64,000 nucleotides of DNA from Acidobacteriota bacterium (GTDB lineage Bacteria > Acidobacteriota > JAAYUB01), in assembly GCA_040768985.1 (NCBI GenBank), contig JAXGLX010000002.1, forward strand, positions 1,856,637 through 1,920,636, written 5' to 3'. The first letter of the stretch is position 1; every line of letters starts with the position of its first letter. Under the pieces are notes generated by a model, which saw only the letters and a program-made list of their open reading frames with translations, made no database searches and was not told the DNA's origin. Position numbers and translations under genes: made by a program. This document shows positions 1,440 through 61,800 of the stretch, piece after piece.

Positions 1440-1930
1440 AGGTGAGCTTTGATCGCTCCGCCTGTTGTACCGATTGAAAGATATGATTTGACGTGATTGT
1501 ATTGGGATAAATTTCCAAATGCAATCTTTCGATGAACGATAATGTCGGTGAATGGGTGAATGGGTAAATCGGTGAATGGGTGAGGGTTCGTTCTCGTAAT
1601 CGTAATTCGTAATCGTGATCGTGATCGTGATCGTAATCGTGATCGTCATCGAAGTTCAAGGTGAATGGGTGAATCGGTGAATGGGTGAATCGGGAGACGG
1701 GAGACGGGAGACGGAAGACGAGAGACGGAAAACAGAAAACGTTAGATGAACGGAAAAACCCGAACCGCGAGCCGCGAATCGCCAGCCCCGAACCGCGAAC
1801 CCTGAACCGCGAGCCCCGATTTCCGATGTCCGATGTCCGCTGATCGGGAACGAGCCTCGAGTCCCGAGCCTCGATCACGATTACTCAGTTACTTCCGAAA
1901 TTCTGCCAAAATTTGGCAAAATTATTCACC
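1440..1930. repeat. Composite tandem-repeat block: (GTGAATGG/GTGAATCG)n, (CGTAAT/CGTGAT)n, (GGGAGAC)n, (CGAACCGCGAGCC)n, (TCCGATG)n, GGAACGAGCCTCGAG module, CGATTAC; ends with a copy of the R-end motif ACTCAGTTACTYCCGAAATTCTGCCAAAATTTGGCAA at 1880-1930
   Basis: Tandem short-period arrays are directly visible. The same modules in the same order recur at about 12 other sites in this window. Confidence 0.85.
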
Positions 1931-2260: not shown

Positions 2261-2545
2261 ATGCCCCTTTGGTTCCGGCTCCGCCGGGTTGGGATCACGA
2301 TTACGATCACGATTACGAATCACGAGCACGAGTACGAGCACGATCAGGCAGCGGGCAGGCGGGAGGTACCGCGAGCGGCAGCCAGGGGCGGTCCGCCACG
2401 ACCCCGCGAGCCCCGAACCCCGAACCGCGAACCCCGATGTCCGCAGCTTGGGAACGAGCCTCGAGTCTCGAGCCTCTAGCCTCGATTCCGATTACGATTA
2501 CTCAGTTACTCCCGAAATTCTGCCAAAATTTGGCAAGATATCTGG
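2261..2545. repeat. Composite repeat block with L-end motif (TTGGTTCCGGCTNCGCCGGNTTRGGATYACGATTACGA) at 2261-2310 and R-end motif (CCCGAAATTCTGCCAAAATTTGGCAA, palindromic core TGCCAAAaTTTGGCA) at 2510-2545
   Basis: The L-end motif is repeated at 4193-4245 (direct) and 43930-43985 (inverted). The R-end motif is repeated at 1880-1930 and 44355-44400 (inverted). The R-end overlaps the 3' end of CDS 2498..4060. Confidence 0.8.
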
Positions 2546-4189: not shown

Positions 4190-4325
4190 TAATGCTTTTT
4201 GGTTCCGGCTACGCCGGCTTAGGATTACGATCACGATTACGAATTACGAGCACGAGCACCCAACTCCTATCTCCTGTCTCCTCACTGTTCACCGTTCACT
4301 GTTCACCGTTCACCGTTTTACATAG
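4190..4325. repeat. L-end motif copy (4193-4245) followed by CGATTACG array and GGAGATAGGAGA / GTGAACGGTGAACAG arrays
   Basis: Direct repeat of 2261-2310 lying 135 bp upstream of the ATG of CDS 2498..4060; tandem heptamer arrays visible. Confidence 0.8.
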
Positions 4326-4391: not shown

Positions 4392-4796
4392 ATGGAACGG
4401 AAGATCCGCGTGCTCATCGCCAAGCCGGGCCTTGACGGCCACGACCGCGGCGCCAAGGTCATCGCCCGGGCGCTGCGCGATGCCGGGATGGAGGTCATCT
4501 ACACGGGGCTGCGCCAGACGCCGGAGCAGATCGTCGCCGCGGCGCTCCAGGAAGACGTGGACGTGATCGGCATCTCCATCCTCTCGGGTGCTCACATGCA
4601 TCTCTTCCCCAAGATCATGGCCTTGGTGAAGGCCAACCAGATGGACGACGTGCTCGTCTTCGGCGGCGGCATCATCCCCGAGGGGGATGTACCCCAGCTC
4701 CAGGCCATGGGCGTGGCCGCCATCTTCCCCCCTGGCACCTCCACCCAGTCGGTGATCGATTTCCTGAAGGAACGCTTCCAGGCCGCCAAGGCCTGA
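4392..4796 (+). CDS. Cobalamin (B12)-binding domain protein (methylmalonyl-CoA mutase C-terminal domain-like)
   Basis: 134 aa; [36 protein letters not shown]...[14 protein letters not shown] matches the B12-binding Rossmann domain with the DxHxxG motif. Confidence 0.85.
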
Positions 4797-4815
4797 GCGC
4801 CGCCCCAAACAGATC

Positions 4816-4857
4816 GCGCCCCGGACAGCGGCAGCCGTCCGGGGCGCTGTGTTTTTG
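4816..4857 (+). terminator. Rho-independent terminator after the B12-binding gene
   Basis: GCGCCCCGGAC-agcggcagcc-GTCCGGGGCGC, an 11-bp stem, followed by TGTGTTTTTG. Confidence 0.65.
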
Positions 4858-4898
4858 CAGGGGCGCCCGCCGCCCGAGCGCGGGCTCCGCCGGCGGCG

Positions 4899-9461: not shown

Positions 9462-9652
9462 AGAGTGAGGAGACAGGATACAGGAGATAGGAGTTTAATG
9501 TATGTTATAGTGTTAAACTTAAGACAGGACTGTGTTCTACTATTTTGTGTGGTTGATTTGCAATTTCGACAGTTTGTATTTTTGACTATGATAAGTTGTA
9601 CTCGATTTAAACACTATTTTTTTTGAATCCGACGACACAGGAGGAATATTTG

Positions 9653-12470: not shown

Positions 12471-12831
12471 GCTTCAGGTTAAGGACAAAAAAACTGGAAC
12501 TTGGGTAGATGTTCCTTGGTCTAATAATAACAATGGTGAAACTTTACCTTCCAAAAATTTAAAGCTCATTTTGTAAGAATATTTGAAAACTAGAAATAAT
12601 TTGGTTTTCAATCATCTGACCAAATTCATCCGAATGCTTGCATTCTCGTCTAAATGTTTATAAAGCAACTTACCTGAATCAAGCTTTGTTCGATGCGTTT
12701 CGTGTACGTCTGCCGATTGGTGGGTAGGCAAAAAATTATCATAGATTTTCCGAGACCCCATTAACATCTCGCATTACGATCATTGTATTTCAAATAGAAG
12801 GGGGTTTGTGGTTAGAGAACATTTTTCAAAT

Positions 12832-14178
12832 TTAAGGATTTTTCATCGCAATGACAAAAAATTCCTCTCCAAGTCCGAGTTTTTGTGCAACCGTTGGCCA
12901 TAGATGTTTGGCATCTTTATCGGAGGAGAAAAAATTGTTGGTTTTTAAATACTTCACATCTAGTTTGGCTTTTTTCAACATATCGAGTAGTTCACTCTTT
13001 GAAAATTCGGTATGATAAAAAAATTTTCCATCAATTTCTTGGTGTATATCTCGTCTTGGTAACCTTTCAGAATTAAATTGCCCCATAAATATTCGATAAA
13101 ACATAACGGGATTTTTAATCATCTTAAAATGTGCCCGATTATTTGTTGTTAAGATTGCTCTGCCCCCTGGACGAAGGACGCGATATATTTCCATCAACCC
13201 AGCTATAGGATCATGAAGATGCTCAAGTACGTCTGTGAAGACAACATAATCAAAAGAATCTGTTGCCAAAGGAATACGCATTGCATTCGCAAGGATGGCA
13301 TCACTGTTGAATAACTTTCGAAAGGCGAGGACGTTGAAATCTTGTGTATCTAACCCGATTAATTGGCAACCATGTTCTTCAAAGAACCTATTAACCTCTT
13401 GATGTGTTATTCCTCCACATCCAAGGCACAGGATACTTTTTCCCTCAAGAGTCATCGACCTCATTTTTTTAAATATTTTATGTAAATATTTCGCCTTTCT
13501 CGATACAAATTTCCGCTGTTCAGTTTCCATTTGCCACGTTTCTTTTTCATCGTTTTCTACATCAAGTTTTAAATCGCGATTCCAACTTTCAAGAAGATTA
13601 AATCCTCCTCCGAAGTGTCTTCTTTCGGAGAGTAATCCGCGTTCACAAAGGTCAGCCAAACGAGACGCATGTGTTCTAAAGTAATTTTCCTTACATATAT
13701 AAAAGTGGTTCGCTGATGCAATCCACGCTCTAAAATACCCCATAATCATGAAGATAACTATACTCGCCAGTGCTATTGTAAAGATGAGAGATGAAAACAA
13801 ATTCAGTTTGAAAAAGAGTACAAATAAAGTGGCAAGTACCAGCGACGAGAGCAGAACGAATCGTTTCTGATTATCACGATAAGTGCGAATTTTATATTTT
13901 AAACTCTCTTCAAAAGCGTCATGTTTTAGAATTCGCCAATTGTTCAAAGTTTTAAAATTTAGCACATTATCTTTGTAATCATGATTCCATAATCGCACAC
14001 AAACGTCATCTTCCAACCAAAGTACGGGTATTTCTTGAAAAATTTTATATTCCAAATGACAAACGGCACATTCCAAGTTAGATCGTTTTTTATTATTGCC
14101 GTCTTCTGCACCATCCTGTTTTACAATTATCATTCCAAGGCAAATCGGACATCTCAATTTAAAAACAAATTCTATCAT
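12832..14178 (-). CDS. Membrane-anchored class I SAM-dependent methyltransferase with N-terminal zinc ribbon (AT-rich, likely horizontally acquired)
   Basis: 448 aa, ~33% GC. CPICLG...CAVCH zinc ribbon, two to three TM segments, C-terminal ILCLGCGGITHQ...DYVVFTDVLEHLHDP...VLRPGGRAILTT MTase motifs I-III. Confidence 0.75.
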   Translation of the reverse strand: MIEFVFKLRCPICLGMIIVKQDGAEDGNNKKRSNLECAVCHLEYKIFQEIPVLWLEDDVCVRLWNHDYKDNVLNFKTLNNWRILKHDAFEESLKYKIRTYRDNQKRFVLLSSLVLATLFVLFFKLNLFSSLIFTIALASIVIFMIMGYFRAWIASANHFYICKENYFRTHASRLADLCERGLLSERRHFGGGFNLLESWNRDLKLDVENDEKETWQMETEQRKFVSRKAKYLHKIFKKMRSMTLEGKSILCLGCGGITHQEVNRFFEEHGCQLIGLDTQDFNVLAFRKLFNSDAILANAMRIPLATDSFDYVVFTDVLEHLHDPIAGLMEIYRVLRPGGRAILTTNNRAHFKMIKNPVMFYRIFMGQFNSERLPRRDIHQEIDGKFFYHTEFSKSELLDMLKKAKLDVKYLKTNNFFSSDKDAKHLWPTVAQKLGLGEEFFVIAMKNP

Positions 14179-14464
14179 TTAGGTATTACTCCGTGAACAA
14201 TTTGATAAATCAAAGTATAAGTTTAGTATATCTTTCAAGCAAGTAATCGCTAATTTTTAGTGGTTTTGTTCAAAACTTCAACCTCTCTTAATACTACTTT
14301 CTTTACATTAAAAAATCAATTTTTCTGTTGATTTGTTGGTTAGACTCACACACTGATAGAATATAGTACATCACGAACAATGCAATCTCACGATGATTCT
14401 CACATAGAGATTGCGCAGTTCGTCCTGGAATGCAACTCGTTTATACCCGATCACGCAAGTTGCA

Positions 14465-14765
14465 TTTCCCGCCCATCCTCCGTAATTCGTAATCGTGATC
14501 GTAATTCGTGCTCGAGGCTTGGGACTCGGGGCTCGAGGCTCGTTTCCAAGCTGCGGACATCGCGGTTCGGGGTTCGGGGTTCGGGGTTCGCGGTTCGGGG
14601 TTCGGGGTTCGCGGTTCGCGGTTCGCGGCTCGGGGCTCGGGGTTCGCGGCTCGGGGCTCGGGCTCGGGGTTCGCGGCTCGGGGTTTTCCGTTCAGCTAAC
14701 GACTTCCGTCTCCCGCCTCCCGATTCACCCATTCACCCATTCACCCATTCACCCATTCACCGGCC
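14465..14765. repeat. Composite repeat block in reverse orientation (CGTAAT, CTCGAGG, CGGACATCG, GGGGTTCGCGGTTCG arrays, GTCTCCC, TTCACCCAT arrays)
   Basis: Same modules as 1440-1930 in reverse-complement order. Confidence 0.8.
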
Positions 14766-14768
14766 GAC

Positions 14769-16188: not shown

Positions 16189-18057
16189 ATGTCTGAGCGT
16201 CGTTTGAACCGGCGGATTCATTGTCTGGCGGGTGTCCTCGCCGTCGCTGTGGCGCTGGCGGCGGTGGGGCTTTGGATCGCGGCGCCGCGAAGCGCCCACG
16301 CGGCCGAAGCCGCGCCTTCCGTCGGCTTCCGCTTCGAGGGCGCGCAATTCATACTGGACGGCAAGCCGTTCCAGATCCGGGCGGGCGAACTGCACTTCCA
16401 GCGCATCCCCCGGGAGTACTGGCGCGACCGGCTGCTGAAAGCCCGGGCGATGGGCCTCAATACCGTGGGCGCCTATGTCTTCTGGAACGCGCTGGAGCCG
16501 GAGCCGGGCCAGTGGGACTTCACGGGGCCGAACGACGTCGCCGCGTTCGTCCGGGAGGCCGGCGCGGCCGGGTTGCGCGTGCTGCTCCGGCCCGGGCCGT
16601 ACGCATGCGCCGAGTGGGATTTCGGCGGCCTGCCGGCGTGGCTGCTCCGCGTCCCCGACATCCGGGTGCGCTGCTCGGCTCCGCTCTACCTCGAGGCGTG
16701 CGAGCGTTACATCACCCGTCTGGCCGGCGAGGTGCGCGACCTGCAGGCCAGCCGCGGCGGGCCGATTCTCATGGTCCAGCTCGAAAACGAATACGGCTCC
16801 TTCGGCAACGACGCCGCCTACCTGCCGTGGCTACGCGACGCCTGGCGCCGCGCCGGCATCGACGTCCCGTTCTACACCGCCGACGGACCCTGGCCCGCCA
16901 TGCTGGCAGCGGGCACCGTCCCCGGCGCGGCCATCGGACTGGACCCGGCCCACACCGCCGAGCATTTCGCCGCGGCCGAGCGGCTGGGGCGCGGCGTGCC
17001 CGTCTTATGCAGCGAGCTCTACCCCGGCTGGCTCACCCACTGGGGCGAACCGTGGGCCCGCGCGGCCACCGAGAAGATCGCCACCCAGCTCCAGTGGCTG
17101 CTTGAAAACGGCAAGTCGTTCAGTCTCTACATGCTCCATGGCGGCACCAACTTCGGCTTCTGGGCCGGCGCGAACTACTCGGACAAGTACGAGCCCGACG
17201 TCACGAGCTACGACTACGACGCGCCGCTGGACGAGCGGGGCCGGCCCACCCCGAAGTACCACGCCCTGCGCGAGCTGATCCGGAAGCATCTGCCGCCGGG
17301 CGAGACGCTCCCCGAGTTGCCGCCGCCCCTGCCGGCGATCGCGATCCCCGAGCTCCGCCTGGCCGAGGAGGCCTCGCTCTGGACGAACCTGCCGGCGGCG
17401 GAGCGCGCGCTCATGCCGGCGCCCATGGAGTTCTTCTACCAGAACCACGGTTTCATCCTGTACCGGAGCCGGGTGCCGGCGCATGCCAGCGGTCGGCTCA
17501 CTATCACGGAGCTTCACGACTACGCCAATGTCTATCTAGACGGCGCGCTGGCGGCCAGCCTCTTCCGCGGGCTGCACCAGGATTCAATCGATGTCCCCGC
17601 GGTCGATCCGCCCCAGCGGCTGGACATTCTCGTGGAGGGCATGGGCCGGATCAACTACGGGCCGCGCCTCGTCGACCGGAAGGGGATCACCGAGCGGGTG
17701 ACCCTTGGCGGCATGACCGTCATGGATTGGGAAGTCTTCCCCCTCCCCTTCGACGCGGCGTACCTGGCGGCGCTCCGCTTCGGACCGCCTGACCCGGCCG
17801 CCCCGCCGGGCAAATTCTTCCGCGGCGCGTTCAGTTTGGACGCCGTCGGCGACACATATCTCGACATGAGCGGCTGGTCGAAGGGCGTGGTCTGGGTCAA
17901 CGGCCACAACCTGGGCCGGTACTGGAACATCGGCCCCCAGCAGCGGCTGTTCCTGCCGGCGCCGTTCATGAAGCGGGGCGCCAACGAGGTCGTCGTCTTC
18001 GAGTTGCACCGCACCGCCCCCTCGCCTATCCGCGGCATCCCCGACCTCGGGGAGTAG
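16189..18057 (+). CDS. Glycoside hydrolase family 35 beta-galactosidase, secreted
   Basis: 622 aa; signal peptide; MVQLENEYGSFG (the GH35 catalytic ENEYG), GPYACAEWDFGGLPAWL. Confidence 0.9.
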   Translation: MSERRLNRRIHCLAGVLAVAVALAAVGLWIAAPRSAHAAEAAPSVGFRFEGAQFILDGKPFQIRAGELHFQRIPREYWRDRLLKARAMGLNTVGAYVFWNALEPEPGQWDFTGPNDVAAFVREAGAAGLRVLLRPGPYACAEWDFGGLPAWLLRVPDIRVRCSAPLYLEACERYITRLAGEVRDLQASRGGPILMVQLENEYGSFGNDAAYLPWLRDAWRRAGIDVPFYTADGPWPAMLAAGTVPGAAIGLDPAHTAEHFAAAERLGRGVPVLCSELYPGWLTHWGEPWARAATEKIATQLQWLLENGKSFSLYMLHGGTNFGFWAGANYSDKYEPDVTSYDYDAPLDERGRPTPKYHALRELIRKHLPPGETLPELPPPLPAIAIPELRLAEEASLWTNLPAAERALMPAPMEFFYQNHGFILYRSRVPAHASGRLTITELHDYANVYLDGALAASLFRGLHQDSIDVPAVDPPQRLDILVEGMGRINYGPRLVDRKGITERVTLGGMTVMDWEVFPLPFDAAYLAALRFGPPDPAAPPGKFFRGAFSLDAVGDTYLDMSGWSKGVVWVNGHNLGRYWNIGPQQRLFLPAPFMKRGANEVVVFELHRTAPSPIRGIPDLGE

Positions 18058-18464
18058 GCGGCCGATTCACCACCAAGGCACGAAGGGCACAAAGAGATCA
18101 TCACCATTTGTCACTGATCATTTTTCATTGATCAATTGTCATTGGTAATTTTGGATGGTGAATCGGGAGACGTGAGACGGGAGATGTCAGACGGGAAGCA
18201 TCAGACAAACGGGAGGAATCGAACCGCGAAACCCGAACCGCGAGCCCCGATATCCGACGTCCAAAGTCCGATGTCCGGCCAGATCCCGGGTCCCAAATCC
18301 CAGATCCCATCCACAGCATGAACGAACTCTTTTCCAGATAGCCATTAAAATATAAGCAATCAACAATAACCAATAATCCGAAATGCCCAATGAAAAATGT
18401 CAGATGATCAATGACAAATGCATCTCTCTGTGCTCTTCGTGCCTTAGTGGTGAGAAGACCAAAT
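18058..18464. repeat. MITE-like unit: ~85-nt conserved 3'-end element at both ends in inverted orientation, flanking a composite tandem-repeat core
   Basis: 18069-18150 (CACCAAGGCACGAAGGGCACAAAGAGATCATC...GTCACTGATCATTTTTCATTG) versus the reverse complement of 18380-18460, each abutting the stop of one of the convergent genes. The core holds GTGAATCG, GGGAGAC, CGAACCGCGA and TCCGAYG arrays. Confidence 0.8.
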
Positions 18465-18872
18465 TCACTCGCTTGATTTGCGCGTGCGGCCCAGTTCCAT
18501 GGCCCGGACCACGACGAAGGCGATGAGCGCGAAGATGAAAAACACGAGCAGCATCCAGGCCACGCCCTGCATGGCGCCGATCACGGTGCGGTAAACCTCC
18601 AGCACCCAGCGGTCGGTGGTGAGCGCCAGGATCTGCGCATCCTTGCCCGTGCCCATGGGCGAGATGTATTTTTCCAGTTCCCAGATCCGAACGCCGCTGG
18701 AGATGCCGATCACCAGGATGGCGAAATCGAGGTAGCGCTTCCAGGCCACGCTGATCTCGTCGGCCATGATCCGCTGGAGGATGCTGCCGATGGGGCGCTT
18801 GAACACCACCACGAGAACCCCTGAGACCACCAGTGAGATCACAAACGTCACTGCGAGCAGGGTGAGAAACAT
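18465..18872 (-). CDS. Small integral membrane protein (3 predicted TM), unknown function
   Basis: 135 aa, strongly hydrophobic segments; preferred over the overlapping 18400..18930 frame. Confidence 0.5.
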   Translation of the reverse strand: MFLTLLAVTFVISLVVSGVLVVVFKRPIGSILQRIMADEISVAWKRYLDFAILVIGISSGVRIWELEKYISPMGTGKDAQILALTTDRWVLEVYRTVIGAMQGVAWMLLVFFIFALIAFVVVRAMELGRTRKSSE

Positions 18873-19064
18873 GGGACACCTCCCGGAATCGTCGTTCCGC
18901 CGCCGGACACCCGCGACGGGCTGTCGGCATCGGTCACGCGGGTAATTTCAAATTCGGTGCCAGGACGGGAGTTTCACCCAAATCCCCATAAAACAAGGCA
19001 ATGAACGCGGCATCCGTACGGGTGCGGTGTCCGAACGCGTCGATAAGATCACATTAAATGAACG

Positions 19065-19090
19065 TTTGTATACAAAATATGTATATTAAA
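19065..19090. promoter_or_regulatory. AT-rich palindrome TTTGTATACAAA + ATATGTATATTAAA between mrpG stop and the downstream membrane-protein gene; candidate operator/promoter
   Basis: Perfect 12-bp palindrome inside a locally AT-rich patch of a 70% GC genome. Confidence 0.3.
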
Positions 19091-19129
19091 TCCCCGCCCT
19101 GTGCGGCGCTTGTCATAGATGCCGGGATT

Positions 19130-19498
19130 TCATTCGCGCGGGTCTGTGACGCTCTCGTCGTCTCCATCCCGCCGCCGGCATTCGGGCGCGTCTTCGCCGA
19201 AGCGCGTCCCGGGCGCCGGTGGAACCCCCGTGCGGAGCGCCGCCCGGGCCAGCAGGTAGGCAGCGACGGGGTTGGAGAGCAGCAGAAAGACGATCACCGC
19301 TGCGGCCTTCAGCGCCACTTCCGCCGTTCCGAAATGCATGGCGACGCCGAGCAGGATGAGGCCGAGTCCGAGCGAAGCGGCCTTTGAGACGGCATGCATC
19401 CGGTTGTACAGGTCGGGCAGCCGGACCAATCCCAGCGCCGCCAGGAACAGGAAGGCGGCCCCCGCCGCCAGCAGCGCCGCGGCCGTCAGCCCGATCAT
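19130..19498 (-). CDS. mrpG: Na+/H+ antiporter subunit G
   Basis: LPDLYNRMHAVSKAASLGLGLILLG matches the MnhG/MrpG signature. Confidence 0.85.
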   Translation of the reverse strand: MIGLTAAALLAAGAAFLFLAALGLVRLPDLYNRMHAVSKAASLGLGLILLGVAMHFGTAEVALKAAAVIVFLLLSNPVAAYLLARAALRTGVPPAPGTRFGEDAPECRRRDGDDESVTDPRE

Positions 19499-19767
19499 GG
19501 CCGCCCCCCATGCTCCACGTAGCGGGCCGCGGCGACGGTGCCCAGGAACACGAACAGGGCGAGCACCAGCAGGACGTCCAGCAGCACGTCCTCGCCTGAG
19601 GTCACGGCGAACACCCCCGCCAGTCCCGCCACGATCAGCCCGATCAGGTCCAAGGCCACCGCCCGGTCCGGCAGCGACGGCCCACGCAGCAGGCGGAACA
19701 GCGCCAGGATCAGGGACCCCGCCAGGAGGGCCAGGGCCGCCGACACGAGTGCCGCCGCCGGGCTCAT
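19495..19767 (-). CDS. mrpF: Na+/H+ antiporter subunit F
   Basis: Internal ATG at 19767 within ORF 19495..20094; [43 protein letters not shown]; ATGA overlap with mrpG. Confidence 0.8.
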   Translation of the reverse strand: MSPAAALVSAALALLAGSLILALFRLLRGPSLPDRAVALDLIGLIVAGLAGVFAVTSGEDVLLDVLLVLALFVFLGTVAAARYVEHGGRP

Positions 19768-20099
19768 CGCAGCACCTCCAGCACCCGTCGCTCCAGGTTC
19801 CGCCGGATGGAGCGGGCCAGCGCGTCCGCGTCCGCCGCGTACATGGTGTGCACGCACAGCTGCCGGTTGTCGGGCGACAGCTGGACGCTGAACGTGCCCG
19901 GCGTGAACGAGATGAGGTTGGTCACCAGCAGGATCTCCAGGTCGGTCCGCGCCTCCAGGGGCACCATGATGAAACCGGGCGATATCCGCGGCCGCGGCCG
20001 CACGATGTCCGCCGCCACCCGCAGGCTGGACGCGACCACCTCCCAGAGATAGAATCCGATGAATACCGCCGCGAACCAGAGTTTGCGCACCCACCGCAT
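19764..20099 (-). CDS. mrpE: Na+/H+ antiporter subunit E
   Basis: MnhE-like ...LISFTPGTFSVQLSPDNRQLCVHTMYA...; ATG at 20099 just after the mrpD stop. An alternative upstream start at 20138 would overlap mrpD by 35 nt. Confidence 0.75.
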   Translation of the reverse strand: MRWVRKLWFAAVFIGFYLWEVVASSLRVAADIVRPRPRISPGFIMVPLEARTDLEILLVTNLISFTPGTFSVQLSPDNRQLCVHTMYAADADALARSIRRNLERRVLEVLR

Positions 20100-20103
20100 C
20101 GGC

Positions 20104-21594
20104 TCACTCTCCCAGCACGGCCCGGATGTACCCCGCACGGTCCATGAGCTGGTCGCCGGCCCGTTGGGCCAGCTCCAGCAGCGGCTCGGGATACAGGCCG
20201 ACGGCCACCGTGATTGCCGTCAACACCAGCACCGGCACCCACACCGGCGCCCCCAGCGGCCGGACGGCCGGCCCTGCGCCGGCGGCCGCCCCGTCCGGCG
20301 ATTCCTTCCAGAAGGCCTCGAGCCAGATCTTGACCATGGAGAAGAGGGTCAGCAGGCCCACGCCCAGCGCCACGGCTCCGGCCAGCCAGTGGCCGGCCAG
20401 AAAGCAGGCCCGGATCACCACGAACTTGGCGACGAACCCCGACAGCGGCGGCAACCCCGCCAGCGACAGGGCCGACACCAGGAACAGCCCCGACAGGCCG
20501 GGATGCTCCCGCCACAGTCCGCCGAGGCGGGCCAGTTCCTCGGTGCCCCGCAGTCGCTTCACCGCGCCGACCACTAGGAACAGGTTGGTCTTGACCACCA
20601 TGTTGTGCACCATGTAGACCATGACGGCCGCCAGGGCGGCCGGCGTCCACACGCCCAGCCCCAACGTCATGTACCCGATCTGGCTGACGATGTGCACCGC
20701 CAGGATCCGCCGCAGGCCGCCTTGGGCGGCCGCTCCCAGCACGCCCGTGATCATGGTGGCCACCGACAGCACCAGGATGAGCGCGTGGGTTCGGCCCACG
20801 TCCTGGACGAACACCAGGGTGAAGAGCCGGATCAGGGCGTAGACGCCTACCTTGGTGAGCACGCCGGCGAACAGGGCCGAGACCGCCACCGGCGGGGTGG
20901 GATAGGCCGCCGGCAGCCAGTTGAAAAACGGAAAGAGGGCCGCCTTGATCCCGAACGCCGCCAGCAGCAGCGACGCCGACGTCAGCACGACGCCGGTCGC
21001 CGGGTCAGCCGGGATCTTCCGGGCCAGGTCGGCCAGGTTCAGCGTGCCCGTTTTGCCGTACAGCAGTCCGCAGGCCGTCAGGAACATGGCCGAGGCCAGA
21101 AAGTTGATGGCCACGTACTTCACCGCGCCCGCCAGCTGGGCCGGCCGCCGCCCCACCGTCAGCAGGACGAAGGAGGCGATGAGCAGCACCTCAAACCACA
21201 CGTACAGGTTGAACAAGTCGCCCGCCAGGAAGGCGCCCCCGGCGCCCATGAGCAGGACCTGCGCCAGGGGCGGAAAGACAGCGTCCGCCATCAGGTCGTC
21301 CGTGCCCAGCGCGTAGACGCCCACCAGCAGGCCGAGCAGGCCCGTCACCGCGACCATGATGGCCGCGAACAGGTCAGCCACCAGGGCGATGCCGTACGGC
21401 GCCGGCCAGCCGCCCACCGCCAGGACCAGGTGCCCGCCGCCGGCGCAGGCCGCCACCAGCACCAGGCCCGAGCCGCAATGGGCGGCCGCCCCCGCCAGCG
21501 CCAGGATGCCGCGCCACCGCCGGCCGCGGACCAGCACGAGCAGGGCCGCCGCGGCCAGGGGTATGAGGATCGGCGCCGCCAGCCACCCGCTCAC
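20104..21594 (-). CDS. mrpD: Na+/H+ antiporter subunit D (NuoN/NuoM-like)
   Basis: GTG at 21594 overlapping the mrpC stop (GTGA); N-terminus VSGWLAAPILIPLAAAALLVL. The longer ORF upstream of this start is low-complexity, non-membrane sequence. Confidence 0.8.
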   Translation of the reverse strand: MSGWLAAPILIPLAAAALLVLVRGRRWRGILALAGAAAHCGSGLVLVAACAGGGHLVLAVGGWPAPYGIALVADLFAAIMVAVTGLLGLLVGVYALGTDDLMADAVFPPLAQVLLMGAGGAFLAGDLFNLYVWFEVLLIASFVLLTVGRRPAQLAGAVKYVAINFLASAMFLTACGLLYGKTGTLNLADLARKIPADPATGVVLTSASLLLAAFGIKAALFPFFNWLPAAYPTPPVAVSALFAGVLTKVGVYALIRLFTLVFVQDVGRTHALILVLSVATMITGVLGAAAQGGLRRILAVHIVSQIGYMTLGLGVWTPAALAAVMVYMVHNMVVKTNLFLVVGAVKRLRGTEELARLGGLWREHPGLSGLFLVSALSLAGLPPLSGFVAKFVVIRACFLAGHWLAGAVALGVGLLTLFSMVKIWLEAFWKESPDGAAAGAGPAVRPLGAPVWVPVLVLTAITVAVGLYPEPLLELAQRAGDQLMDRAGYIRAVLGE

Positions 21595-21938
21595 GGTCCC
21601 TCCTCCTCGAGCCGGTCGAGGTCCTCCACGCCGGTGGCGTGGTGCATCCGCCAGAGCAGAACCAGGGCGAAGGCGGTGATGCCGAACCCGATGACGATGG
21701 CCGTCAGGACCAGCGCCTGGGGCAGCGGATCCGGATGGGGCGGCGCCAGGGCGGCGGCGCCCTCGGCCACGATGGGCACGCCCCGGGCCGACAGGCCGGC
21801 CGCGGTGAAGATCAGCAGGTTGATGGCGTTGCCCAGCAGGGCGATGCCCAGCACCAGCCGCACCGGGCTCCGGCGGAGGAGCAGGTAGACGGCCACGCCC
21901 GTCAACGCCCCGATGATCACGGCCATCACCAGTTCCAT
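21591..21938 (-). CDS. mrpC: Na+/H+ antiporter subunit C (NuoK-like)
   Basis: 115 aa; MELVMAVIIGALTGVAVYLLLRRSPVRLVLGIALLGNAINLLIFT. Confidence 0.9.
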   Translation of the reverse strand: MELVMAVIIGALTGVAVYLLLRRSPVRLVLGIALLGNAINLLIFTAAGLSARGVPIVAEGAAALAPPHPDPLPQALVLTAIVIGFGITAFALVLLWRMHHATGVEDLDRLEEEGP

Positions 21939-21941
21939 CGC

Positions 21942-22346
21942 TCACTCCTCCATCAGGGCGAACACGATGCTCACGCCCACGCCCAGCACCACCAGGAACA
22001 CGCCCGCATCGAAGATCAGCGGCGTACCCAGGCGGACCCCGCCGGCCCACTCGCCGCTCCACAGCCCGCTCAGGTACGGGCGCCCCAGGACGAGCGCCGG
22101 CAACCCGCTCCCCAGCGCCAGGAGCAGCCCGACTCCCGTCAGCGTGCCGGGGGCGACGCGCAGCCAGCGTTGCGCCGCGGCGACGCCCTCGGCCAGAGCC
22201 AGCAGGGTGAAGGCCCCCGCGGCCACGAGTCCGGCGATGAAACCGCCGCCGGGATCGTTGTGGCCGCGCACCAGCAATCCCAGCGCCCCCGCCAGTTGCA
22301 GGGGCACCAGGATGCGCGCCGCGCCCCGCAGGATCACCGAATTCAT
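21942..22346 (-). CDS. mrpB: Na+/H+ antiporter subunit B
   Basis: C-terminal 134 codons of ORF 21942..24599: [40 protein letters not shown] (MnhB signature); ATGA overlap with mrpA. Confidence 0.8.
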
Positions 22347-24661
22347 GGCGGTCCCTCCTGCGGCGGCCGGCGGCGCTGCAGCAGGTACACCGCCCCGAGG
22401 GCCGCGACCGCCAGCACGGTGATCTCGCCCAGGGTGTCCAGGGCGCGGAAATCCACCAGGATCACGTTCACCACGTTCCGGCCGAACGCGAGGGGCACGC
22501 TGGACCGGGCGTAGAATTCGGAAATAGCGGGCCCCAGCTGGACCTGGAGGGCCTGCCACACCAGGCCGGTCATGGTGATGCCCACGGCCGCGGCGATGCA
22601 CCCGTCGCGCAACCGCTGGCGGCTCGCCGAGAACTCCCGCAACCGCGGCAACCGCCGCAGCACCAGCACGAACAGGATCATGGTCAGCGTCTCCACGAGC
22701 AGTTGGGTGATGGCCAGGTCCGGCGCCCCGTACACCATGTAGAGCAAACTCACGCCGAAGCCGACGCCGCCCAGCGCCAACACCGCCCCCAGGCGCGAGG
22801 CGGCGCGCACCGCCGCCAGGGCCGCCGCCACCACCAGCATGCCCACCACCACCGCCACCGGCGACACGGGGGCGAGCCGGTCCGGACGCGTCCACTGGAT
22901 GTAGCCCCAGGCGCCCCAGGCGGTCGCGGCCACGGCGCCGGCGAGAACGGTGAAGATGTAGCCCCGCAACCGGCCGTGCTGCAGGATCCGGGTCTGGTCC
23001 TTGGCCAGGTCCATCAGCCCCTCCAGCAACTGGCCGTAGATCCGGCTGGGCGTGAACGGCACCGTCAGGGCCAGTCGCTCGCCCAGCCGGCGGACGCGCT
23101 TCCGCATCGCGAACAGGCCGGCACCTACGGCCATCGTGGCCAGGCTCAGCAGCAGCACGGCATTGACGCCGTGCCACAACTTGAGTTCGATTTGCGTCGC
23201 CTGCGCGTGAACGGCGGCCGCGGCCGGCGCGATGACCGGACCGGCCAGCATGCCGGGCATCAGTCCAAACACCAGGCCCAGGACCGCCAACAGGACCGGC
23301 CCGGTCAGAAGCGCCGGCGGGGCTTCGTGCACGGGTGCCCGTGGACGCTTCGGCCGGCCCAGGAACGGCCGGATCCCTACCGTCAGGGCCACCGCAACGT
23401 TGAGCGCGTTGGCCAGCACGCCGGCTCCGAGGATCAACCAGCCGACGCCGGGCGCCTGAAGTTTCGCCTCGTAGAGCAACTCCTTGCCGATATAGCCCAG
23501 CAGCGGCGGGAACCCCGACATCGACAGGGCGGCCAGGCCGGCGGCGACCGCGGTCACGGGCATGCACCGGAACAGACCACCCAGATCCTGGACATTGCGC
23601 GTGCCGGTCTCGTGGTCCACGGCTCCGGCCACCATGAACAGCGCCCCCTTGTACAGCGAGTGCACCAGCAGGATGACCAGAGCAGCTTCCACCGCCATTG
23701 TCGTGTCCAGCCCCAGCAGCAGGACCAGCAGGCCCAGCATGCTCACCGTGGAATAAGCCAGCAGGCGCTTGAGATCGGTCTGGCCCAGCGCCATGAGCGC
23801 GCCCAGCAGCATGGTGGTCACGCCCAGCAGGGTGAGCAGGTAGTGCCATTCCGCGGTGCCGCCCAGGACCGGCGCCAGCCGGGCGAGCAGAAACACACCG
23901 GCCTTGACCATGGTGGCCGAGTGCAGGTAGGCGCTTACCGGCGTGGGCGCCGCCATGGCGCCGGGCAGCCAGAAGTGGAACGGCGCCTGGGCCGACTTCG
24001 TCGCCGCGCCCAGTACCACCAGGATGAGGATCGCCCCGTAGTGGCCGTGCGACCGGATCGATGCCGCCGCGCCGGCGAGCTGGACTATCTCGAAGCTGCC
24101 CCCCGCCAGGCCCAGCAACAGCGAACCGGCCAGCAGCGCCAGTCCGCCGCCGCCGGTCACCAGCAACGCCTGCCGGGCGGCGCTCCGGGTCCCGGCGTCG
24201 GCGTGGTGGAACCCGATGAGCAGGAACGACGCGATGCTGGTGAGTTCCCAGAACACGAACAGCGAGATCAAATCCCCCGCCGTCGACACGCCCAGCATGG
24301 CGCCCATGAAGAGTAGTGTCTGCGCGTAGAAGCGGCCCAACCGCGCATCGCCTTTCAGGTACCCGCCGCCGTAAACCAGCACCAGTGCTCCGATGCCGGC
24401 CACCAGCAGGATCATCAGCAGGCTCAGGCCGTCCACGTACAGGCCCACCCGCAGGCCCAGCGTCGGGGCCCAGTCCCAGCCCGCCGCCTCTGCCGGACAG
24501 CCGGGCCGGACCAGCCGGCCGACGGCCGCCGCGACGACAAGCAGCGGCCAGGCCGCCAACAGCCAACCGGCGCGCGCGCCGGCGCGCCGGTACAGCCACG
24601 GCGCCACCGCTGCCGCCCCGAAAGTGCCCAAGATGAGCCAGGCGAACAACACCGGATGCAA
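22343..24661 (-). CDS. mrpA: Na+/H+ antiporter subunit A (NuoL-like, with MrpB-like C-terminal domain)
   Basis: 772 aa; ...[17 protein letters not shown]..., [32 protein letters not shown]. The start at 24661 is TTG; a GTG lies 3 codons downstream. Confidence 0.85.
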
Positions 24662-25029
24662 CCCGTGCAGTGATGGTATCGGCGGAAGACGGATGGTCGC
24701 CGGACCGGCCGCTCCCGCATTCCGCGCCGATGGCCGCGGGACCCGCGGCGCACGGAGCGGATTATATCATCAAAGTTCCGGCGCAGACACTGAGGGAGAG
24801 GTCAGGAGGGCGGGCGCGTGTCGCGGATGCGAACCGGGGGTCCGTCGCGGTGGGGGGCTCGATCCGCCGCCTGTGGAATGACCGCACCGTTCCGCCCGGT
24901 TGATCGTGCGCCCTGAGCCCAGCCATCGACGTGGACAGTCGCAGAAATTCTCGCTCTGCCATTTAACATGCAACAAAAGGGCCTGGCGTTACGTCATATC
25001 ACCGAACATAATCTTTCGGGGGAATACTC

Positions 25030-32027: not shown

Positions 32028-32470
32028 CATTCACCTCAGAGGGCACAGAGGACGCGGAGAAGATCATTCGTCATTGGTCATTGGTCATTGGTCATTTCTC
32101 ATTGGTCATTGTCAGAGGAGCGATGGGTGAATAGGTGAATGGGTGAAAAGGTGAATGGGAAGAGCTTATTTATTATTGCTCATTGACTATATTTTATTGG
32201 ATATTTAGAGCCGAGTCGGGTTTTGCCGGGATCCGGGAGGCGGGAACTGGGACCTGGGAACCGGGACCTAGGAACTGAAACCCGGGAACTAGGACCTGTG
32301 AGCTGGGGGCGAGATCCAGGCCCCAGAACCAAGGTCCCAGATCCGATATCCGAAGTCCGATATCCGAAGTCCGATGATCGGGAACGAGCCTCGAGTCTCG
32401 AGCCTCGATAACGATGACGAGCACGATGAACTCTCAACCCTCAACCATCAACCATCAACTATCAACCGAT
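32028..32470. repeat. 3'-end conserved element (diverged, GTCATTGG array) plus reverse-orientation composite repeat block
   Basis: 32030-32110 starts at the MFS stop; followed by GTGAATRGG and, in reverse, CTCGAG, TCGGACATCGGAT and GGTTCCCAGGTCC arrays. Confidence 0.75.
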
Positions 32471-32482: not shown

Positions 32483-33271
32483 ATGGCCATAACGATCGAT
32501 CTGAACGCGGATGTGGGCGAGCGCCCCGAAGCACTGGCCGACGGCTCCGAGGCCGCACTGCTCCGGCTGGTCACTTCGGCCAACATCGCTTGCGGCGGCC
32601 ACGCCGGCGACGCCGCCACCATGGCCGCGACGGTGCGGCTGGCGCTGGAGTCCGGCACCGCCATCGGCGCCCATCCCGGCTACCCGGATCCCCTGCACTT
32701 CGGCCGGGCGGTCCTCGCCATGGAGCCGGCGGCACTTCGCGCCAGCCTGCTGGCACAGATCCGGGCGCTGGCCGGGATCGCGGCCGCCGCCGGCGCCCGC
32801 CTGGCGCACGTCAAGCCGCACGGCGCGCTCTACAACCTGGCCACGCGTGACGCGGCGACCGCCCGCCTCGTCGCCGAAACGGTGGCGGCGATCGACCCGA
32901 AGCTCGTGCTGGTGGGGCTGGTCGGCTCCGCCCTGCTGGAGGCCGGACGGATGGCGGGACTGGCGGTGGTCGGCGAGGCGTTCGCGGAGCGGCGCTACGA
33001 GGCGGACGGGACGCTGCGCGATCGGTGCCACGACGACGCGTTGGTCCGCGATCCGGCCGAAGCGGCGGCCCAGGCCGTCACCATCGCCCGCGACCGCCGG
33101 GTGACGGCCGTCGACGGCACGGTGGTGCCGGTGGACGCCCGCACGCTGTGCCTCCACGGCGACTCCCCCGGCGCCGTGGTCATCGCCGCCGCGGTCCGCC
33201 AGGCGCTTGAGCGCGCCGGCGTGGTTTTAGCGCCGTTGAGAGTGAACGGAGAGGAGATAGGAGATCGGTGA
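32483..33271 (+). CDS. pxpA: 5-oxoprolinase subunit A (LamB/YcsF family)
   Basis: IDLNADVGE...SANIACGGHAGD...HVKPHGALYN. The last ~9 codons (VNGEEIGDR) are encoded by the repeat array. Confidence 0.85.
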   Translation: MAITIDLNADVGERPEALADGSEAALLRLVTSANIACGGHAGDAATMAATVRLALESGTAIGAHPGYPDPLHFGRAVLAMEPAALRASLLAQIRALAGIAAAAGARLAHVKPHGALYNLATRDAATARLVAETVAAIDPKLVLVGLVGSALLEAGRMAGLAVVGEAFAERRYEADGTLRDRCHDDALVRDPAEAAAQAVTIARDRRVTAVDGTVVPVDARTLCLHGDSPGAVVIAAAVRQALERAGVVLAPLRVNGEEIGDR

Positions 33272-33530
33272 GTCGGTGAATGGGTGAATGGGTGAATCGG
33301 TGAATGGGTGAATCGGTGAATGGGTGAATGGGTGAATCGGTGAATGGGTGAATGGGTGAATCGGTGAATGGGTGAATCGGTGAATGGGTGAATCGGTGAA
33401 TGGGTTGTGAGGGGGATTCATCAATTATGAGAAGACCGATCTCCGATGTCCGATGTCCGATGTCCGATGTCCGCGTCATGGGAACGAGTCTCGAGCCTCG
33501 AGTCTCAATGACGAGCACGATTACGATTCG
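33250..33530. repeat. Composite repeat block: GTGAATGG/GTGAATCGG array (12 units), TCCGATG x4, GGGAACGAGTCTCGAGCCTCGAG, ACGATTACGATTCG
   Basis: Direct reading; same module order as 1440-1930. Confidence 0.85.
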
Positions 33531-34865: not shown

Positions 34866-34869
34866 CGCG

Positions 34870-39719: not shown

Positions 39720-39930
39720 CGGCCGCCAGTCTTTCACCACAAAGACACGAAGGACACAGAGGAATCCAGTTGTCATTGATCATCTGACATTTTTCATCGG
39801 GCATTTCGGATTATTGGTTAGTAATCGTAATTCGTAATCGTAATCGTGCTCGAGGCTCGAGCACGAATTACGAATTACGAGCACGAAATCCGAAGTCCGA
39901 TATCCGATGTCCGATGTCCGATGTCCGTCC
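39720..39930. repeat. 3'-end conserved element (39725-39815) plus composite repeats (CGTAAT, CTCGAGGCTCGAGC, TCCGATATCCGATGTCCG)
   Basis: CACCACAAAGACACGAAGGACACAGAGGAATCCAGTTGTCATTGATCATCTGACATTTTTCATCGGGCATTTCGGATTATTGGTTA is near-identical to the element at 18380-18464 (reverse complement). Confidence 0.8.
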
Positions 39931-39932
39931 CC

Positions 39933-48539: not shown

Positions 48540-48600
48540 GGTGTTTGATTGTGCTTCCCCCAATTCACCGATTGACCGATTCACCGATTCACCGATTCAC
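48540..48600. repeat. ATTCACCG array (reverse GTGAATCGG-type) at a convergent gene junction
   Basis: caattcaccgattgaccgattcaccgattcaccgattcacag. Confidence 0.7.
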
Positions 48601-56534: not shown

Positions 56535-56880
56535 AGCGGGGATCGTGATTGTAAACGTGATCGTAATCGCAATCGTGATCGTAATCGCAATCGTGATCGC
56601 AATCGTGATCGCAATCGCAATCGAGGCTCGAGACTCGAGGCTCGTTCCTGGAACGCGGACATCGGACGTCGGAAATCGGAAATCGGAAATCGGACCTGGG
56701 ACCTGGGTTCTGGGCCCTGGATCACAGAACCCAGATCCACGTACCCATTCACCCATTTACCCATTCACCCATTTACCCATTCACAATTCGAAATGCTCAA
56801 TGACAAATGAAAAATGAAAGATGATCAATGTAAGACTCCTCTCCCGATTCACCTATTCACCTATTCACCCATTCACCTAT
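56535..56880. repeat. Composite repeat block (CGTGATCGTAATCGCAAT array, CTCGAG module, GGACATCGGA, GGAAATCGGA x3, GGACCTGGGA, TTCACCCAT arrays) plus 3'-end conserved element (56780-56830)
   Basis: Direct reading. The minus-sense of 56780-56880 contains TTGATCATCTTTCATTTTTCATTTGTCATTGAGCATTTCG right after the stop of the beta-barrel gene. Confidence 0.8.
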
Positions 56881-57717
56881 TCACCAGATCTTAATCCTAT
56901 AGCTCACCCCCGCGCTGAGCGATGTCTCGGAGACAAACATGCCCTGCACGGCGAACGACCAGCCGTCGCCGAGGTCCACCTCCACGCCCGGCAGCACGGC
57001 GAGGTTCTTCTCGCGGGTGGTCCTGCCGTCGTAAGCGACGGTGATTTCCGGATACGGGGCGTACACCCAGAGGCCGTCCAGGTCGAAGTGGGAGTGGCAG
57101 TAGCCCAGGCCGACATACGGCGCGAACCGTCCGACGGGCCAGACCAGGATTCCTGACGCGCTGGCCTGCCAGTACGTGACTGTGTCATCGGTCGCCCAAC
57201 CGAGTGATTCGGCGGAGCTGCCGTCGGGCGCGTAGACCCAGTCCCCGACATCGCGCGACGTGTAGCGGAGGTATTTCACCGCGGCGATGAGCTCGGGCCC
57301 CGCCGCATGCTTCCACAGCAGGGCCTTGCCGCCCACGTACCAGAGGAACCGACGCCCGACGGTTCCATCCCAGTCGTTGACGCCCGCCTCTTCGCTGAGC
57401 CATCGACCACGGCCCGTCAGGCCGAGGCCGGCGTTGACGTTGACGCGGTCGTGGAGTCCCAGCGCCAGGGTTACGAGGAATTGTTCATCGTCCTCGAATT
57501 TGGCATCCTTCACATCGGTGGCCGAGGAATCGTCCCAGTAGGTCCGGGCCAGTTCGTAGTGCTCGAAATCCTGGAGGAAAATAAATCCGGCCTGCAGCCC
57601 CACCCCCAGATGCCCCTTGGGCACCAGACGGACGGGATTGCCGACGTCCTGGGCGGCGGCGGCAGTCAGGCAGGCGGCACCGATCAGCAGCAACAGCAGG
57701 TGGTGTTTCACGGTCAT
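56881..57717 (-). CDS. Outer-membrane beta-barrel protein
   Basis: Signal MTVKHHLLLLLIGAACLTAAAAQD; alternating amphipathic strands; C-terminal ...SAGVSYRIKIW aromatic terminus. Confidence 0.6.
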   Translation of the reverse strand: MTVKHHLLLLLIGAACLTAAAAQDVGNPVRLVPKGHLGVGLQAGFIFLQDFEHYELARTYWDDSSATDVKDAKFEDDEQFLVTLALGLHDRVNVNAGLGLTGRGRWLSEEAGVNDWDGTVGRRFLWYVGGKALLWKHAAGPELIAAVKYLRYTSRDVGDWVYAPDGSSAESLGWATDDTVTYWQASASGILVWPVGRFAPYVGLGYCHSHFDLDGLWVYAPYPEITVAYDGRTTREKNLAVLPGVEVDLGDGWSFAVQGMFVSETSLSAGVSYRIKIW

Positions 57718-61549: not shown

Positions 61550-61800
61550 CTCAAGTATGGTGACGATTACGATTACGAATGACGATTACGAGCACGACAC
61601 TCGATATCCGAATTCCGATGTCCGATGTCCGATGTCCACGTTACGGGACGAGTATCGAGCCTCGATTACGATCACGATTACGATTACGATTACGATTACG
61701 ATTACGAATTACGAGCACGAATCACGCCCCCGCCGCCCCCCTCCTCACTCCTATCTCCTAACTCCTCACTGTTTACTATTTACTGTTCACTGTTCACTCC
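61550..61800. repeat. Composite repeat block (CGATTACG array, TCCGATG x3, CGAGCCTCGATTACG, GGAGATAGGAG / GTGAACAG variants)
   Basis: Direct reading. Confidence 0.8.

Follow-up and report, generated by a model that had tools for sequence, protein, structure and literature searches.

A short element behind stop codons in an acidobacterial genome is probably the head of a polar, modular intergenic repeat unit with a palindrome arm resembling repeats that flank GxxExxY genes

Background

The repetitive extragenic palindromes (REPs) and bacterial interspersed mosaic elements (BIMEs) of enterobacteria and pseudomonads are imperfect palindromes of about 30 nt in high copy number, joined to other short motifs in regular order, located mostly at the 3' ends of genes and presumed to exert their effect, by way of hairpins, on mRNA ends or on DNA topology; a GTAG/CGTC tag marks the two superfamilies of REPs (PMC3733652). 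Intergenic tandem arrays of 7-nt units, known as heptamer simple sequence repeats (SSRs) or short tandemly repeated repetitive (STRR) sequences, occur in heterocystous cyanobacteria, Xanthomonas/Nostoc and Beggiatoaceae, with lengths that vary between related genomes and a patchy distribution across phyla. The GGGAATC/GGGGAYT repeats of Xanthomonas/Nostoc lie on the sense strand within 50 bp of stop codons and are transcribed (Rehm et al. 2015, PMC4692102), and in the study of the TAACTGA repeats of Beggiatoaceae the presence of the same repeats in unrelated phyla was left as an unsolved puzzle (MacGregor 2015, PMC4679880). MITEs (miniature inverted-repeat transposable elements) such as Correia, Nezha and Chunjie have inverted terminal arms around a variable, AT-rich interior and many dispersed copies. 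All of these bear some likeness to an element in a 64-kb stretch of DNA from an Acidobacteriota bacterium (assembly GCA_040768985.1, contig JAXGLX010000002.1, positions 1,856,637 to 1,920,636; hereafter the window), where about 90 AT-rich nucleotides had been predicted to stand immediately 3' of the stop codons of five genes as a candidate terminator, 3' untranslated region (UTR) RNA element or MITE. The analysis reported here indicates that this sequence is probably the head of a polar, modular intergenic repeat unit rather than an independent RNA element.

Results and discussion

The predicted element as the probable head of a modular unit

A profile built from the five proposed copies (nhmmer, alignment A1) and searched across the window recovered exactly those five and no other match at E<0.1 (Table 1). 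All five are in sense orientation and 0-15 nt 3' of a stop codon, as had been claimed, with the motif TTCACC 8 nt past the stop of the GH35 gene, 10 nt past that of a small membrane gene, 2 nt past that of an MFS transporter gene and 13 nt past that of a radical-SAM gene. Pfam matches confirmed the GH35, MFS and radical-SAM neighbours; the outer-membrane beta-barrel protein (OMP) encoded next to the fifth copy had a weak match, and a Pfam search with the 135-aa membrane protein gave no match. Only three copies are complete. The MFS copy is diverged, as had been described, and the OMP copy lacks the first ~30 nt, in place of which the alignment has GGTGAATA octamers. The second half (48 nt) of the consensus that had been written for the element occurs exactly at 18370-18417 (-) and with one mismatch at 39770-39817 (+), and has no match in shuffled sequence. 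The first half as written matches nothing in the window, even at three mismatches, because one base is missing; the true sequence is CACCAC-N-AAG, and the corrected search form TCACCACNRAGRCACRAAGRRCACARA matches three window copies. The palindrome said to be centred on GATC is merely TGATCA with a 4-bp GTCA/TGAC clamp, has no stable fold and is absent from the MFS copy. The composite repeats said to follow the element were found with Tandem Repeats Finder (TRF) and a repeat finder, and the two copies at the convergent GH35/membrane-gene junction do form an inverted pair.

The window has about 70% G+C overall, and many of its intergenic stretches are sharply lower; TRF over the whole window found these low-G+C stretches packed with tandem arrays of period 6, 7 and 8. 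In about 15 intergenic regions, such arrays, with units of 6-8 nt and a small number of unique linkers between them, make up polar repeat units of ~40-450 nt. When all of these regions are compared, about 12 array types are seen to follow one another in a single fixed order, a-b-c-d-...-f-y-g-h. The modules are a (TTCACCAC plus RNCACRRAG units); b (TCATTGN, as a degenerate 7-nt array); c (GGTGAATN); d (CGGGAGA); next, as alternatives, x-e (the unique linker x followed by CGAACCG/CGAGCCC) or z-i (the AT-rich linker z followed by GGGAMCT); f (CCGATGT); y-g (GGAACGAG followed by CCTCGAG); h (hexamers of ACGATY); and finally j (TCAACCA) or k-l (CTCCTAT followed by TTCACYG). The second half of the predicted element is module b, itself a heptamer array (..TGTCAT TGATCAT CTGACAT TTTTCAT TGGGCAT..). 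The order of modules is also kept in 22 non-redundant contigs of relatives and in the 34 unique a+b copies described below.

Among the nine head-first units of the window, which start with module a, b or c, eight begin at a stop codon in sense orientation, at 14768 (-), 18066 (+), 18454 (-), 32030 (+), 33267 (+), 39733 (+), 48600 (-) and 56885 (-). The tails (h, j, k-l) mostly point at the start of the next gene, for example from 32467 to the ATG at 32483 and from 4325 to 4392, and on the sense strand the GC skew of the head arrays ranges from +0.5 to +0.86. The region 18058-18464 contains two converging units, each of which sets out from the stop codon of its own gene, the left one with the order a-b-c-d-e-f and the right one with a-b-z-i, an order that recurs in relatives L213, L150, L175 and L139. 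The inverted pair around a repeat core thus results from two units meeting head-on.

Table 1. Profile matches and repeat units of the window (positions are those of the 64-kb window)
Feature	Position	Strand	Evidence and remarks
GH35-side copy, profile match	18056-18170	+	nhmmer E=8e-28
Membrane-gene-side copy, profile match	18463-18362	-	nhmmer E=2e-28
Radical-SAM-side copy, profile match	39724-39829	+	nhmmer E=2e-27
MFS-side copy, profile match	32026-32128	+	nhmmer E=1e-23
OMP-side copy, profile match	56880-56774	-	nhmmer E=3e-21
Module a, left arm (TTCACCACCAAGGCACGAAGGGCACAAAGAG)	18066..18096	+	8 nt past GH35 stop; pattern match, alignment; pairs with 18424-18454 in fold
Module b, left unit (7-nt-period array, ..TGTCAC TGATCAT TTTTCAT TGATCAA TTGTCAT..)	18097..18155	+	TRF 18105-18144, period 14; alignment
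Left-unit remainder: c (GGTGAATC), d (GGGAGAC x4), e (CGAACCG/CGAGCCC), f (CCGATGT)	18156..18278	+	TRF 18164-18277; repeat families D8, D19; sequence reading
Right-unit inner part: linker z (TTATTGGTTATTGTTGATTGCTTATATTTTAATGGCTATCTGG, AT-rich), then array i (GGGATCT/GGGATTT/GGGACCC)	18279..18366	-	TRF, sequence reading
Module b, right unit	18367..18423	-	Exact match to the predicted consensus; absent from L001 ortholog
Module a, right arm	18424..18454	-	10 nt past stop of 135-aa membrane gene; pattern match, fold
Modules a+b after radical-SAM gene	39733..39820	+	13 nt past stop; consensus match, profile, pattern
Radical-SAM unit remainder: CGTAAT hexamers, CTCGAG core, ATTACG hexamers (local hairpin), CCGATGT x5	39821..39932	+	TRF
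Diverged a (TTCACCTCAGAGGGCACAGAGGACGCGGAG) and b as (TCATTGG)x7	32030..32111	+	2 nt past MFS stop; TRF 32064-32111, period 7
MFS-LamB unit remainder (c, z, i, f, y-g, h, j), up to LamB/YcsF start codon	32123..32482	+	TRF, sequence reading, Pfam
OMP-gene downstream unit c-b-c-i-f-y-g-h, without module a; b at 56835-56795	56541..56885	-	TRF, alignment, sequence reading
Unit c-d-x-e-f-y-g-h	14481..14768	-	7 nt past stop of DinB-family gene; TRF, sequence reading
Unit c-h-c-d-x-e-f-y-g-h	1533..1885	+	Head faces start of FGE-sulfatase gene (gene on minus strand); TRF, sequence reading
Unit c(x17)-f-y-g-h	33267..33530	+	From LamB/YcsF stop; repeat family D1, TRF, sequence reading
Short c array (CGGTGAAT x4.8)	48563..48600	-	At stop of minus-strand gene 48597-49034; TRF, sequence reading
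Tail-only partial unit (small hairpin, h, e, f, y-g, h)	2268..2500	+	Repeat families D11, D18; TRF, sequence reading
Tail-only partial unit (small hairpin, h, k, l)	4198..4325	+	Upstream of B12-binding-domain gene; TRF, sequence reading
Partial unit h-f-y-g-h-k-l	61557..61800	+	Antisense to both neighbouring genes; TRF, sequence reading

Turnover at orthologous loci

The exact GH35 protein of the window has no database record, and the locus was compared through homologues that are 93% identical (L001, GCA_016294955.1) and 84% identical (L002, a Logan assembly); the nearest named homologues belong to Acidobacteriota/Aminicenantes metagenome-assembled genomes (MAGs). The spacer between the same convergent pair of genes is 407 nt long in the window; the corresponding lengths in L001 and L002 are 293 and 91 nt. 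The L002 spacer is little else than a near-perfect hairpin of ~29 bp (left arm TTCACCACGGAGGCACAAAGAACACAAAA, right arm TTTTTGTGTCCTCTGTGCCTTTGTGGTGAA, TAAT between them; -41 kcal/mol, z -9.6), and module a is one arm of this extragenic palindrome. The L001 junction has both a-arms and the left b-c-d-e-f and lacks the right-hand b, and the L002 junction has no module b at all. Elsewhere, the MFS-LamB spacer of L001 has (TTGATNG)n heptamers where the window has module b; insertions and deletions between the window and L001 in the unit downstream of the DinB-family gene include steps of 7, 14 and 20-21 nt; and this L001 unit is ~99% identical over ~130 nt not to its orthologous unit but to the non-orthologous window unit at 1660-1800. 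Within the window, the right-hand a+b of the GH35 junction (18367-18454) is 89% identical, without gaps over 88 nt, to the copy at 39733-39820. These comparisons indicate that the palindrome is the old and stable part, and that the arrays change in unit-sized steps and exchange sequence among dispersed copies. As a separate difference between the two genomes, ~6 kb with several minus-strand genes (window 18872-25030) are missing from the otherwise syntenic L001 6332-7201.

The same loci bear on the proposal that the element is a MITE, in which the a+b arms would be the terminal inverted repeats, and the repeat core the body, of a non-autonomous transposon moved by a transposase encoded elsewhere. 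The inverted arms at 18066-18155 and 18367-18454, the near-identical copies at unrelated loci, the resemblance of the a-arm family in other phyla to cassette ends with gene-less derivatives, and the IS630/IS481-like transposase fragments in the window are all in keeping with this. Three of the five window copies (39733, 32030, 56835), however, have no inverted partner; units are polar and chained head-to-tail in relatives, and single arms are common. Neither the window junction nor 23 complete hairpins of the family show target-site duplications, the mean flanking repeat of the hairpins being 1.78 nt compared to 1.86 nt in shuffles. No empty site was found at the GH35 junction among the three genomes: the a-hairpin is present in the window, L001 and L002, and only its interior varies, which points to growth in place. 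The MITE proposal is therefore considered unlikely.

Terminator or 3'-UTR RNA element

The other part of the original prediction was a self-contained cis-acting RNA of ~90 nt, transcribed with the upstream gene and acting as an intrinsic terminator or as a 3'-UTR stabiliser or small RNA (sRNA). The sense placement of all five window copies just past stop codons and the good conservation of a+b over 34 copies in relatives speak for such an RNA, as does the lack of canonical terminators at these gene ends, where something else must then end the transcripts. Folding gave no such support: the five single copies fold like shuffled sequence (z = -0.5, -0.9, +0.7, +0.8 and -1.7 compared to dinucleotide shuffles), and no conserved RNA structure was found, so that by the terms the original prediction set for itself the RNA element falls. 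Terminator and sigma-70 scans of ~19 kb around the copies detected a stem-plus-T-run site in none of the five and no sigma-70 match within the elements. A search of the window at Rfam gathering thresholds gave no match, and an Rfam search by E-value with six related hairpin loci gave only sub-threshold matches to generic miRNA-precursor hairpin models. Strong folds were found for other stretches: the whole 407-nt GH35/membrane-gene junction folds as one long hairpin by way of its a+b arms (-143 kcal/mol, z -6.7), and 39815-39885, in the radical-SAM unit that abuts the stop of a minus-strand gene at 39933, folds with -34.5 kcal/mol (z -7.8). The L002 a-hairpin has its T run within the loop and not 3' of the stem, and thus does not have the form of an intrinsic terminator. 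A canonical bidirectional intrinsic terminator, a G+C stem between A and T runs, lies between convergent genes at 4797-4866, which indicates that some gene ends of this genome do have terminators of the ordinary kind. At orthologous sites in genomes whose proteins are 84-93% identical, module b has been exchanged or is lacking, and in relatives many copies are preceded by other repeat modules and not by a gene. On this evidence a cis-acting RNA of ~90 nt is very unlikely.

Copies in related genomes and the weight of the polarity

A scan of metagenomes for the a-b junction followed by a profile filter yielded 34 unique a+b copies, two of which are orthologs of the GH35 site; the scan pattern demanded TTGTCAYTGATCA, so that only copies with that b core were sampled. 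In all 34 copies, a-b is followed by c-d or z-i, and up to five units stand in tandem across ~2 kb. Gene-free stretches of up to ~2 kb made of head-to-tail units were observed in relatives L128 (3388-5229), L229, L150, L203 and L227, and some chained stretches are preceded by a conserved unique segment of ~60 nt (...GACTTTTAGGGTCAATGGAAAGACGAGG...).

The description of the predicted element as the head of a polar unit that starts behind stop codons has to be weighed against several observations, most of them from these relatives, where gene calls (as everywhere outside the window) were heuristic and crude. Only 6 of the 34 copies, including the two GH35-site orthologs, lie within 40 nt past a sense stop, and two more lie 41-200 nt after one; 11 follow directly behind the f/h modules of a preceding unit, five are within 200 nt of a divergent gene start, one is at a contig edge and nine are of unresolved placement. 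Whole units are oriented nearly evenly with respect to the gene on their 5' side (17 versus 18). In the window itself, the unit head at 1533 (+) faces the start of a gene with an FGE-sulfatase domain and not a stop codon. The conserved order of modules could equally mean selection for a function as yet unrecognised. The sense orientation that had been claimed for the element therefore stands for the window and is weakened once the copies of relatives are counted. With respect to the downstream gene, co-orientation of whole units is favoured (22 versus 14), and units antisense to both neighbours are the rarest arrangement (2 of 26).

The fixed order could be a functional layout if the arrays were binding sites for a DNA- or RNA-binding factor or formed non-B DNA such as G-quadruplexes (G4). 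The conservation of the order across many contigs agrees with this, as do the G3 tracts of arrays c, d and i, six stretches of which fit the G4 motif on the sense strand of the unit; the TAACTGA heptamers have been proposed as binding sites of post-transcriptional regulators (PMC4679880). Against it, many c arrays, long ones among them, alternate GGG with CGG and fail the G4 motif, modules a and b have no G tracts, the number and even the type of units change between close relatives, and no candidate binding protein was identified; a layout of this kind is quite unlikely. That the mosaics are artefacts, misassembled from low-complexity reads, is hardly credible: such repeats do break short-read assemblies and many of the related contigs are short, but the same architecture stands at the same syntenic sites in independent NCBI, Logan and JGI/ENA assemblies, with unique linkers conserved and flanking genes intact. 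A modular unit headed by a+b remains the probable description.

The palindrome arm across phyla and its link to GxxExxY genes

A scan of representative genomes with TCACCACNRAGRCACRRAGRRCACARA gave at least 120 loci. The a-arm is present in at least 15 phyla, with matches in Acidobacteriota, Planctomycetota, Chloroflexota, Bacteroidota, Gammaproteobacteria, Desulfobacterota, Cyanobacteria, Nitrospinota, Verrucomicrobiota, Gemmatimonadota, WOR-3, Latescibacterota and other groups; among the carriers are Thiocystis minor DSM 178 and Geothrix limicola, both isolates, and a single Methanothrix MAG. Of the 135 arms among the matches listed, 59 are followed by an inverted partner 0-850 nt further downstream. 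An alignment of 36 arm pairs (RNAalifold) has a consensus stem of 25 bp with compensatory changes in nine pairs. This covariation, which would otherwise favour a selected structure, is discounted as proof of selection because the arm subtype (AGAG, AAAG, GAAG or GGAG) is genome-specific; it may reflect merely these subtypes. By the same crude gene calls, a-arms across phyla showed no clear preference for one orientation with respect to the genes beside them (single arms 25 versus 33), hairpins stand between convergent, tandem and divergent genes in 10, 12 and 6 cases, and those with a sense left neighbour usually start less than 40 nt from its stop codon. An apparent enrichment of other short arrays near a-arms in other phyla (raw 8.5 versus 2.0 tandem arrays per 10 kb) was rejected, nearly all of the excess being partner arms and non-arm arrays remaining at ~2 per 10 kb, which makes the mosaic lineage-specific. 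Similarly built hairpins with arms of other 8-9-nt units (CGCAAAG, CATGAAG) stand beside a-type arms in L086, L089, L097 and L113, which suggests a wider class of palindromes with tandem-repeat arms.

Three hairpin loops hold small open reading frames (ORFs) that match TIGR04256, the GxxExxY protein, and the GxxExxY genes in a-arm loci are within 200 nt of an arm in five of five cases. In an independent test with five GxxExxY homologues of 61-84% identity from different assemblies, including the isolate Kallotenue papyrolyticum, arms were found at all five, on both sides of the gene at four and as a hairpin just downstream at the fifth; the left arms start ~7-17 nt past the upstream stop codon, and all five genes are co-oriented with both neighbours. 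Combined, all ten GxxExxY (PF13366) genes (L039, L044, L059, L068, L112, L239, L243, L245, L246 and L247) have an a-type arm, inverted TTCACCAC(RRAG-RNCAC)n, within 200 nt, and six of the ten are flanked on both sides. Arm-flanked genes were found in Planctomycetota, Chloroflexota, Bacteroidota, Acidobacteriota and a deltaproteobacterial MAG; one of the five test genes sits between cas2 and cas4. The arms also form gene-less hairpins, and two hairpin loops of 209 and 222 nt (L035, L068) contain truncated GxxExxY remnants. PDDEXK_3 (Pfam PF13366) is listed as a family of unknown function that has undergone 'multiple transfers' between divisions (PMC3424549), and a literature search found no published description of the arm repeats or of repeats flanking GxxExxY/PDDEXK_3 genes. 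The gene with its arms looks like a mobile cassette family that has spread across phyla. The window contains no GxxExxY gene or remnant anywhere in its 64 kb, so that a cassette origin of module a at this locus rests on sequence resemblance only.

Comparison with described repeat systems

The elements work most like REP/BIME and resemble the intergenic heptamer repeats (STRR, GGGAATC, TAACTGA). As in BIMEs, a palindrome in high copy number and a mosaic in regular order were found. The tag that marks REPs was not, because the a-arms carry neither GTAG nor CGTC; they begin with TTCACCAC and end with GTGGTGAA. No RAYT gene turned up in the 64 kb, the ORFs of which were not searched for a Y1-transposase domain, and the only transposase-like Pfam matches are the IS630/IS481-like helix-turn-helix (HTH) fragments. 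The a-arms differ further from REP/BIME in being 8-9-nt tandem repeats themselves, with long tandem arrays as partners in place of fixed short boxes, and in having a sequence common to many phyla, whereas REPs are species-specific. The arrays share with heptamer SSRs an intergenic position, head-to-tail units and variation in copy number between relatives, and the module b unit TCATTGG is presumably the same repeat as STRR2, TT(G/T)GTCA. Known cases are arrays of a single unit, whereas here about a dozen unit types follow a fixed order with unique linkers and a palindrome arm at the head. Like the G-rich heptamers of Xanthomonas/Nostoc, the head arrays have G over C on the sense strand, and they fit the strict G4 motif only in part. 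The elements are like MITEs in their variable, AT-rich interior and many dispersed copies and, at the GH35 junction, in their inverted terminal arms, and the a-arm family also appears to descend by internal deletion from a parent that carried a gene; membership fails because there is no target-site duplication, and it is a further difference that single arms are frequent, that units chain head-to-tail and that they have a polarity with respect to genes. Module a matches the inverted repeats of the GxxExxY cassettes (TIGR04256/PF13366), and both start a few nucleotides past an upstream stop codon, while the arms of the window enclose no GxxExxY gene. What appears to be new, in the literature searched, is a phylum-shared, GxxExxY-linked palindrome arm at the head of an ordered mosaic of about a dozen arrays.

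Proposed origin and function

Taken together, these results allow a tentative model, possible but held with less confidence than the modular unit itself, of an undescribed, phylum-crossing mobile cassette. The cassette would consist of a small PD-(D/E)XK-like GxxExxY gene within inverted TTCACCAC(RRAG-RNCAC)n … GTGGTGAA arms, would insert a few nucleotides after stop codons and would decay to more numerous gene-less hairpins, which in this acidobacterial lineage might nucleate an ordered and polar mosaic of about a dozen short tandem arrays, able to spread from one intergenic region to another. As for the modular unit itself, its sites were probably seeded by an a-type palindrome left over from a GxxExxY cassette family that spread horizontally and settles just past stop codons; replication slippage would then have lengthened the arrays, and recombination or gene conversion among copies would have spread them. 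The polarity might be kept because just one orientation would be tolerated at the 3' end of a transcript, namely the one that puts the G-rich head arrays on the non-template strand.

Any function of the unit would most likely be a 3'-boundary role, not specific to sequence, in which the upstream transcript would be ended or stabilised by a hairpin where both arms exist and otherwise by a G-rich obstacle. Such a putative role is plausible, although any boundary or terminator role is pure inference. The rapid replacement of module b argues against a function tied to the 90-nt sequence itself, and a dependence on that sequence is unlikely.

Other features of the window

A small conserved hairpin, TTTGGTTCCGGCTACGCCGGCTTAGG, precedes ACGATY hexamer arrays at 2268-2293, 4198-4223 and 43950-43975 (-), and may be a further module or the boundary of tail-only units. 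A cluster of G+C-rich hairpins (e.g., CCAGGCGCAGCCCCGCG / CGCGGGGCAGCGCCTGG) at 1985-2215 recurs nearly unchanged at a different locus of L001 (6720-6925), with related inverted arms at 44040-44110 / 44286-44356, and is a repeat or a structured RNA. Two islands of ~34% G+C, at 9600-11200 and 12400-14400, contrast with the ~70% of the window and are possibly foreign DNA; the second contains a gene for a 448-aa methyltransferase (12832-14178, -) and is conserved in L001 1-2000. The two HTH/IS630-IS481-like transposase fragments (33657-34052, 35197-35667) lie in a stretch of lower G+C (33657-36540), in which the motif GCATCACATCGTGCACA has four copies at 34990-35140 and an inverted copy at 36460-36490 that are probably decayed insertion-sequence ends. 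At 44655-48399, two adjacent large genes consist of 78-nt (26-aa) HEAT-like repeats and account for many direct-repeat families.

Conclusions

This repeat makes up roughly one in three of the window's intergenic regions, as well as long stretches devoid of genes in its relatives. Annotators of small ORFs, sRNAs and terminators in Acidobacteriota-like genomes will meet it, and it yields spurious ORFs and broken assemblies. If confirmed genome-wide, the order of modules and their polarity relative to stop codons would point to an unrecognised way to mark transcript or gene boundaries, or could result from repeat-building mutation coupled to transcription. The association of the a-arm with GxxExxY genes offers a concrete lead, open to test, on a large protein family whose function is unknown, and bears on why the same short intergenic repeats occur in unrelated phyla. 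Should the GxxExxY protein prove to be a nuclease that is structure-specific and directed at its own palindrome, the cassette would be a new kind of homing element, which would explain how identical short repeats came to stand in unrelated phyla.

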